Shown here: positions 62,538-64,000 of the stretch, in pieces
Numbering within the stretch: the stretch's first letter is position 1
Layout: each line of letters begins with the position of its first letter
Notes under the pieces: model-generated
What the model was told of the DNA's origin: nothing
Seen by the model: the letters and a program-made list of their open reading frames with translations, nothing else
Database searches by the model: none
DNA from: a virus
Length of the DNA stretch: 64,000 bases
Reading direction: 5' to 3' (one strand)
Virus record (IMG/VR): IMGVR_UViG_3300044691_000566
Span: 1 to 64,000 of that record
Position numbers and translations under genes: made by a program

Positions 62538-63152
62538 ATGGAAAGCGACGAGTTCCCCTGGCTGTCCAGCCTGCCCGAGAACGAGGCCCACAACTTCGTC
62601 CTGAAGCTGGGCAGCGCTCTGCACCAAGGCGACTACGTCTACGAGGACGAGGAGGTCGAGCGCTCCTGGGAGGACGTCCTGGCCGACGTGGACAAGGTGA
62701 TCCGCACCTACCGGAACCTCGTCCTGGAGGTCGACGACGTCACCGAGGGCGAGCCCGTGCCGGTGCTGCGGTACACCCTGGAAGAGCGCTCCCAGTGCAA
62801 GTTCGTCTACAACCTGGAACAGGCTCCGGAGTCCATCGCCAACCCCAACTTTCCCGGCCTGACCGTCCAGCCCAAGACCCTGCTGATCCTTCTCGCGCCC
62901 GGCGAGGACGGGAACTGGGAGGCCGGTCTCGTGAGCGTGAGCGGCCCGTTCTTCCTGAAGGATGACCGGCCGGGCAGGCGCGTCGAGAGCGTCCCCTTCA
63001 CGAACCCCATGGACGAGGACAGCGGGGCGCCGGAGTGGGTGCGCCTGATCGTCCAGGACCACCTGGACACCCTCAACCACGAGTACTCCCACCGCACGAC
63101 TATGCAGAGCCGGAGCCTGGTCGCCCACAGCGAGACGATCCCGGAGGGATGA
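62538..63152 (+). CDS. antitoxin-like N-terminal domain protein (paralog 1)
   Basis: FPWLSSLP..E...F...L. Confidence 0.6.
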   Translation: MESDEFPWLSSLPENEAHNFVLKLGSALHQGDYVYEDEEVERSWEDVLADVDKVIRTYRNLVLEVDDVTEGEPVPVLRYTLEERSQCKFVYNLEQAPESIANPNFPGLTVQPKTLLILLAPGEDGNWEAGLVSVSGPFFLKDDRPGRRVESVPFTNPMDEDSGAPEWVRLIVQDHLDTLNHEYSHRTTMQSRSLVAHSETIPEG

Positions 63153-63487
63153 CCATGGAGGCCCCCGCGTTCCCCCGGGTCGGGGACCTGCCCGAGAGCG
63201 AGCAGCGCTCCTTCTGGAACGGGCTGTGCGTCGCCCTGCACAACACCAAAGCCTCCCTGTCGAAGCCCACCGCGCACGACTTCGAGGCGGAGAGTGCGCC
63301 CGTCATCGCCATGTGGAAGGAAAGGGCGCAGATGTACGCGGCCATGTCCCTGGAGGAGCGCCAGCAGGAGGCCGCGCGCACGACGGCTCGGGAGCTGTTC
63401 ACCGTGCTGATGCCGGGTAACACCGGGATCAGCACGGCCGACGAGGTGGCGGACACGATCCTCGCCGCGATCCGAAAGGTGGTCTGA
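63149..63487 (+). CDS. antitoxin-like domain protein (paralog 2)
   Basis: FP.V..LP..EQ..F...VI..WK..A..YA. Confidence 0.6.
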   Translation: MTMEAPAFPRVGDLPESEQRSFWNGLCVALHNTKASLSKPTAHDFEAESAPVIAMWKERAQMYAAMSLEERQQEAARTTARELFTVLMPGNTGISTADEVADTILAAIRKVV

Positions 63488-63489
63488 CC

Positions 63490-64000
63490 ATGGACAGCAT
63501 CGCGTTCCCCTGGCTCAAGCATCTGCCCGACGACGAACAGGTCGAGTGCCTGCGCGAGCTGAAGAAGATCCTGTCCCAGGGCAGCGGCTCCTGGGAGTTC
63601 CGCCTGAACTCCCTGGACGAAGCTCTGATCTCGTGGAAGTCCACGGCCGAGGTGTATGCCGATTCGGAGACGCTGGCGGCCCTCACCGCCAAGGTTCGTC
63701 AGGACGTGCTGACCGCCTTCGAGGTGGACGAGAACTACGCCTCCACGAGGTCGACGGCCCTCACCCCGTCCGAGGAGGCGCAGACCAAGACGGAGATCAC
63801 CGAATACCTGGAGCGCATGTACGGCGTCGGCGAGATGCCGCTCACCGTGGGTCCCGCGCCCCGGTTGCTCGACTGCGGCCTGTGCTACGAGGAGGACGGC
63901 GAGGAGGTCCACCCGCATCCGGAGTGCACCTGGGAGATCCCCTGTCCCCGCTGCGGCAAGCGCGTGGAAACGTGGTTCGACCGCTCGCTGTGCCCCGAGC
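63490..64000 (+). CDS. antitoxin-like domain protein (paralog 3), runs off the window end
   Basis: FPWLKHLP.DEQ..CL.EL...LISWKSTAEVYAD.E.LAAL then Cys fingers; absent from the ORF track because no stop is in the window. Confidence 0.65.
   Translation, partial: MDSIAFPWLKHLPDDEQVECLRELKKILSQGSGSWEFRLNSLDEALISWKSTAEVYADSETLAALTAKVRQDVLTAFEVDENYASTRSTALTPSEEAQTKTEITEYLERMYGVGEMPLTVGPAPRLLDCGLCYEEDGEEVHPHPECTWEIPCPRCGKRVETWFDRSLCPE

Follow-up and report, generated by a model that had tools for sequence, protein, structure and literature searches.

The three adjacent genes at the end of this phage sequence, here called A, B and C, encode proteins whose N-terminal domain is homologous, as judged by profile comparison, to the C-terminal ~78 residues of an actinobacterial antitoxin-like family, and this region is a divergent form of the Pfam domain DUF6247. 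The stretch analysed (the window, 64,000 nucleotides) covers the opening 64 kb of a 159,746-bp phage genome with 66% G+C. Because the phage carries no toxin matching the domain, the explanation preferred here, to which we give about an even chance of being right, is that A, B and C are half-antitoxins that would neutralise a RelE/YoeB-like toxin of the host, that is, decoys. By sequence, the three genes belong to a class of antitoxin-related products carried by a phage without the corresponding toxin.

Gene A (62538-63152, + strand, 204 aa) is followed by gene B (63155-63487, + strand, 110 aa) and gene C (63490-64344, + strand, 284 aa); the window stops at 64000, and the remainder of C was read from the genome. 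All three are open reading frames with a GC3 of 0.93-0.94 (0.94 in both A and B) and each is preceded by a GGAGG-like ribosome-binding site. The start of B, for which there is a second possible ATG at 63149, lies 2 nt past the stop codon of A, and the A/B and B/C junctions have the same form, TGA-CC-ATGGA. All three are genuine genes coupled in translation, and their common GC3, their GGAGG-like sites and their identical junctions make them look like an operon that arose by tandem duplication.

The original prediction described three adjacent genes with a common motif near the start, the second motif being present in two of them, and both statements hold for the complete genome. The pattern FP[WR]....LP[ED].E has exactly three matches in the 284,272 six-frame residues of the 159,746-bp genome, at residue 6-7 of A, B and C and nowhere else. 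A family profile built from foreign relatives alone, and then run on all six frames of the complete phage sequence, recovered the same three genes: C with 93.7 bits (E 9e-28), B with 24.1 bits (E 5e-6) and A with 20.5 bits (E 7e-5). These E-values, and the gap that separates them from the best match outside the trio (E 0.59), indicate that the genome has exactly three copies of the domain. Chance recurrence of a short motif was considered as an explanation and is ruled out by the three matches at an identical position together with the significant profile E-values.

The three copies are preserved to different degrees. The domain in C (AFPWLKHLPDDEQ ... SWKSTAEVYADSETLAALT, 63502..63690, + strand) covers profile positions 1-63, the one in B (FPRVGDLPESE ... 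MWKERAQMYA, 63167..63340, + strand) covers positions 1-53, and the remnant in A (FPWLSSLPENE..., 62553..62708, + strand) covers positions 2-44 only. The second motif (W-K..A..YA) is kept in B and C; B lacks the TAEV/DPEL motif, and A, in which approximately the first 45 profile positions are matched, retains only the Trp of W..TAEVYADPEL. By sequence, A can be described as a strongly diverged half-copy of the domain and B as a strongly diverged full-length copy. The direct similarity among the three proteins is weak (pairwise phmmer E 0.1-0.2), and in genome-wide phmmer comparisons the best non-self match of A is C, that of C is A and that of B is A.

Searches of family databases with the phage proteins gave little. 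Neither A, B nor C had a match above threshold in Pfam, NCBIfam or PHROGs, and none of them matched PF02604. Gene C aligns with positions 17-75 of the DUF6247 profile (PF19760) with 12.7 bits (E 0.15), which is below the gathering cut-off of 26.9 bits, and A and B did not match this profile at all. When residues 1-100 of C were compared by phmmer with 1.8 billion representative proteins, 40 proteins were found at E<1e-3, many of which match DUF6247; the cut-off is exceeded by P0007 (68 bits) and P0036 (37.7 bits). Thus, despite the sub-threshold score, these intermediates and a profile-profile probability of 99.6% (described below) lead us to regard A, B and C as divergent relatives of DUF6247, not as members by the Pfam rule. 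DUF6247 is a Pfam family to which no function is assigned, and it is not mentioned in the literature searched. Two metagenomic proteins, P0007 and P0018, have two tandem DUF6247-like domains per chain.

No relative was found in the 50,697 GenBank phage records, whether by megablast of positions 60000-64000 or by tblastn of A, of C and of the phage-type protein P0016. A word-index search with the C domain returned nothing, and neither did a scan of viral contigs with A or a scan of metagenomes with C and P0002. Scanning viral contigs with the whole of C picked up only the Cys-rich motif of C, which recurs in a phage gene (L002) that is otherwise unrelated.

The relatives that were recovered fall into two architectures. 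Proteins of class 1 have 150-165 aa and carry the domain at the C-terminal end, where it finishes 13-20 residues before the stop; they come from Acidimicrobiia, Streptomyces, Micromonosporaceae, Pseudonocardiaceae and others, and a pattern scan of species genomes yielded 187 of them, of which 80 were taken as loci L003-L082. In class 2 (alignment A6; loci L083, L085-L087, L090, L091, L093 and L095, n = 8) the domain begins approximately 5 residues past the initiator Met and is followed by 76-174 residues of varied sequence, often rich in Cys and His. Comparison of the two profiles with hhalign places columns 4-87 of class 2 on columns 89-166 of class 1 (probability 99.6%, E 4e-24), and the residues FPW, LP, W..TAEV.ADPEL and the VP.P tail are invariant in both classes. 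The resemblance to the C-terminal region of actinobacterial antitoxins, which had been proposed at the outset, is thereby borne out at the level of profiles. Columns 1-88 of class 1 align with nothing in the phage proteins, and this, as well as the missing PF02604 match, agrees with the earlier statement that the DNA-binding region is absent.

The nature of the cellular proteins was approached through AlphaFold2 models of the cellular pair, that is, of the class 1 protein and of the product of the gene next to it. The class 1 model, made from a 34-sequence alignment, has a pLDDT of 92 and a pTM of 0.76, and shows a beta-alpha-beta-beta-alpha arrangement in the N-terminal half and helices in the C-terminal half. 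In Foldseek the top rows were almost all YefM/Phd antitoxins, aligned over ~52 residues with an rmsd of 1.8-2.4 Å and a probability of 0.9-0.99, the whole-model E-values being weak. VIA-align superposed 56 of 56 residues on Phd (3hs2_A) with an rmsd of 1.7 Å and gave a Z of 5.0 with YefM (2a6q_A). According to the model, then, the cellular proteins begin with a half that adopts the Phd/YefM antitoxin fold. At the level of sequence, DUF6247 is matched by 33 of the 34 class 1 proteins and PhdYeFM by two, weakly (best E 0.004); the annotations read ‘hypothetical protein’ or ‘DUF6247 family protein’. The C-terminal domain of the cellular proteins (~75 aa) is predicted with confidence to be a folded helical unit, and fold searches of the PDB with it returned only generic helical proteins, all with Z ≤5.6, which does not imply a novel fold.

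A conserved open reading frame of ~117 aa lies directly downstream of the antitoxin-like gene, on the same strand and mostly with a 4-bp overlap, in 66 of the 80 genome loci, and the same partner gene adjoins most of the 72 metagenome loci. The partner has no match in Pfam, NCBIfam or PADLOC. Its model (24 sequences, pLDDT 86, pTM 0.79) consists of a strand, two helices and then a beta-sheet, and its best Foldseek match is YoeB of S. aureus (7v5y_E, E 2.4e-4, target TM 0.79), with RelE2 and RelK of M. tuberculosis, YafQ and HigB as the other best matches, all of them RelE-superfamily toxins. The sequence profile of the partner finds only a weak YoeB match in the PDB (E 1.2). The family has conserved Arg, His and Glu residues and a C-terminal GHP(K/R).T motif. 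On the basis of the model, the partner is assigned to the RelE/YoeB toxin fold (ParE/RelE superfamily).

The Phd/YefM fold of one protein and the overlapping downstream gene for a RelE/YoeB-fold protein make the cellular unit a bicistron of the Phd/YefM-RelE/YoeB kind in which the antitoxin gene comes first, in keeping with the ‘prevent-host-death’ identity that had been proposed for the relatives. The two-gene unit (L003-L082, for instance L034:3983-4824, and L089-L160) appears to be an unannotated and widespread actinobacterial family of type II toxin-antitoxin systems. Both of its proteins stay below the cut-off of every toxin or antitoxin family in Pfam and NCBIfam, and nothing significant was found when PDB sequences were searched with the profiles of the antitoxin and of the toxin. 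Thirteen of the 80 cellular loci (L005, L015, L024, L032, L047, L054, L055, L059, L060, L065, L066, L069 and L071) have an antitoxin-like gene and no recognisable downstream toxin of the RelE/YoeB-fold family, and in a fourteenth, L029, only a fragment of the toxin is left; these 14 may be orphans or may have a different partner. A complete antitoxin-toxin pair also lies at the extreme end of a 175-kb contig listed as ‘viral’ in IMG/VR (L084:1070-2217); this pair may be borne by a prophage or belong to flanking host DNA.

Loci with the C-terminal form of the domain nearly always have the toxin, whereas none of the eight class 2 loci has one within 4-5 kb. In the present phage, the profile of the cellular toxin run on the whole 159,746-bp genome gave no significant match (best E 0.086), and no gene flanking A-C matched a toxin family of Pfam, so the absence of a toxin noted in the original prediction now extends to the full genome. 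The suggestion to look past position 64000 is likewise answered: a cognate toxin beyond the end of the window is ruled out by this search.

The surroundings of the trio consist of a small hydrophobic protein, an HU-like protein, a tRNA-Met, two coiled-coil paralogues and Cys-rich proteins. The gene for the small hydrophobic protein (62313..62528, + strand, 71 aa, GC3 0.85) is an open reading frame that adjoins the trio upstream and has no Pfam match. Also upstream are the gene for an HU-type DNA-binding protein (61829-62182, + strand; Pfam Bac_DNA_binding, E 1e-21) and tRNA-Met(CAT) (61608-61682, + strand), and the two adjoining coiled-coil paralogues, with similar ...TPY.R...Y..L... N-termini, lie at genome positions 64334-64681 and 64671-65300 (L001:4334-5297). 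Farther on, by eye, the product of 68238-69194 looks like a Thg1-like tRNA-His guanylyltransferase and that of 71940-72521 like a dCTP deaminase.

The class 2 loci (65-68% G+C) appear to belong to related phages. These have one gene with the domain at the same locus, compared with three in the present phage, and this is where the earlier description of an ‘array’ has to be restricted: the three copies are there, but the related phages are single-copy and A has only half of the domain. Some neighbours were compared by eye: the single-copy gene in L085 directly follows the gene of a comparable small protein with a terminal Cys (unaligned), an HU-like gene adjoins the single-copy gene in L087, and the downstream neighbours in L087, L093 and L095 include an HU-like gene and a coiled-coil gene of the ‘...RLY.EL...’ type.

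Beyond the domain, the C-terminal parts of A, B and C are mutually unrelated, just as the earlier reading of the sequence, a different fusion for each gene, had it. In A, the C-terminal ~140 aa have no relatives: a search of 5.8 billion proteins recovered A alone, and its model in the ESM Atlas is weak (pLDDT 0.64), with all matches at TM <0.4. Gene B encodes the domain and a short helical tail, and the only relative found by the word-index search is P0073, a protein of 114 aa from another sample that is 67% identical. In C the domain is followed by a Cys-rich region (CGLCYEEDGEEVHPHPEC...) and then by a module shared with P0002, P0010 and P0017, and the whole protein belongs to no Pfam family. 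A separate gene of the phage (60222-60887, + strand) encodes a Cys/His-rich protein that has no DUF6247-like head; over residues 1-90 it shares 57% identity with the C-terminal module of P0014, a module that in other phages is fused behind the domain. The identity between a fused tail in P0014 and a free gene here shows that the module has been swapped between fused and free forms. By eye, the tail of the L085 protein resembles both the P0014 tail and the product of 60222-60887.

The explanation based on decoys starts from the division of labour in Phd/YefM antitoxins, in which the N-terminal half dimerises and binds DNA and the C-terminal part wraps around the toxin and inhibits it. By analogy, no part of the cellular antitoxin other than the DUF6247-like half qualifies for binding the toxin, and we infer that it plays this role. 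A, B and C would then be phage-borne C-terminal helical halves of an Actinomycetota antitoxin of the Phd/YefM type, produced early from an operon of three genes coupled in translation. Their target would be the RelE/YoeB-fold toxin of the host, bound while the host antitoxin decays during infection, and with the toxin held in this way translation would keep running; the three diverged copies could cover different variants of the toxin. That A-C neutralise a toxin is suggested by their architecture, and the proposal presumes that the host pair acts in phage defence. Some observations weigh against it. In the model the C-terminal domain is a folded helical unit, unlike the disordered tails of Phd/YefM antitoxins, and could have a role other than binding a toxin; A has only half of the domain, B lacks TAEV/DPEL, and long swappable tails are superfluous for a simple decoy. 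In addition, the family of the partner toxin has no PADLOC match, so PADLOC lends no support to a role of the host pair in defence, and the 50,697 GenBank phage records yielded no relative.

Two other explanations give the tails a part. In one of them, somewhat unlikely in our estimate, the DUF6247-like domain is a general docking or dimerisation handle that joins Cys/His-rich effector or nucleic-acid-binding modules to one another, or docks them on a target that is not a toxin, and the homology to antitoxins reflects ancestry only. Comparison of the relatives, in which no fewer than four unrelated C-terminal modules are joined to the domain, speaks for this, and so do the module shuffling implied by the free gene (57% over 90 aa) and the prediction that the domain is a stable folded unit whose fold has no informative match in the PDB. 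Such a handle does not explain why in cells the domain is virtually confined to the antitoxin position beside one toxin family, nor why the residues that are invariant in the antitoxins are likewise invariant in the phage forms. In the other explanation, which we consider improbable, the domain would be a portable ‘toxin grabber’, used as an N-terminal handle in a clade of large actinophages, that passes the RelE/YoeB-type toxin of the host to interchangeable Cys/His-rich modules by which the toxin is sequestered, destroyed or redirected; with a tandem set of three diverged handles, a broader range of toxins would be caught.

The number of genes and the unannotated tails admit two further readings. 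It is quite improbable that C is the sole functional gene, as in the related phages, and that A and B, tandem duplicates in decay, do nothing by themselves; the single copy in those phages and the half domain of A, a protein with no relatives, speak for this, but all three genes are intact, with uniform GC3 (0.93-0.94), RBS-like sites and coupled junctions, and B has a full-length relative elsewhere (67% identical). Least probable, and in our opinion very unlikely, is that each protein is self-contained, with a C-terminal effector, possibly toxic, that is restrained in cis or targeted by the N-terminal domain, or that a toxin of an unrecognised kind lies nearby. Fused toxin-antitoxin proteins are known, CapRel being an example, and the C-terminal parts are indeed unannotated and differ between copies. 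Against this, neither the C-terminal parts nor the neighbouring genes show a resemblance to any toxin family or to the RelE-like toxin of the cellular pair, the tail modules also occur in proteins without the domain, and B has almost no tail.

If the decoy proposal is right, DUF6247 would receive its first function, as the toxin-facing half of an antitoxin. It would also bring to light a widespread actinobacterial pair of the Phd/YefM-RelE/YoeB type, with 187 relatives in one pattern scan, whose toxin escapes Pfam, NCBIfam and PADLOC alike, and it would mean that this toxin-antitoxin pair matters in the infection of soil actinobacteria by phages. A captured half-antitoxin as the counter of a phage to a RelE-type toxin would be a case with no equivalent in the literature searched. 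Should the domain instead work as a ‘toxin grabber’, the phage would have a modular, fusion-based anti-toxin system and not a simple decoy.

Among known systems, the closest to the cellular relatives are the Phd/YefM antitoxins with YoeB/RelE toxins (YefM-YoeB of E. coli and S. aureus, RelBE2 and RelJK of M. tuberculosis) and Phd of phage P1, with which they share the N-terminal fold, as well as the antitoxin-first bicistron with overlapping stop and start codons and a partner of the RelE/YoeB fold. Homology with the phage domain lies in the C-terminal part of these cellular relatives, the part that does not bind DNA. The phage proteins differ from Phd/YefM antitoxins in that they lack the Phd/YefM fold and any toxin, and the C-terminal part is here a domain of ~75 aa predicted to be folded and helical, in place of a short disordered tail.

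With regard to phages, several products that counter toxins have been established. The orphan DarG-like enzymes of T4-like phages have been shown experimentally to counter DarT (PMC11825919), and AdfB/Gp145 of ICP1 is an experimentally shown antitoxin mimic (PMC11481870), in a report that also discusses Dmd of T4 and pseudo-ToxI as toxin-countering products. The targets of the established phage orphan antitoxins and mimics are DarT, RnlA/LsoA or ToxN (PMC11825919; PMC11481870). What A, B and C have in common with them is an antitoxin-type product without a toxin that presumably cancels a host system, and the decoy proposal follows the logic established for these cases. The differences are that the targets of DarG-like enzymes, AdfB, Dmd and pseudo-ToxI come from experiment, whereas a RelE/YoeB-fold target is presumed here, and that in the present phage only half of an antitoxin is used, placed at the N-terminal end of fusion proteins and present in triplicate. 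Taken together, these comparisons suggest that A, B and C are a variant of a kind of phage orphan antitoxin that is already known.
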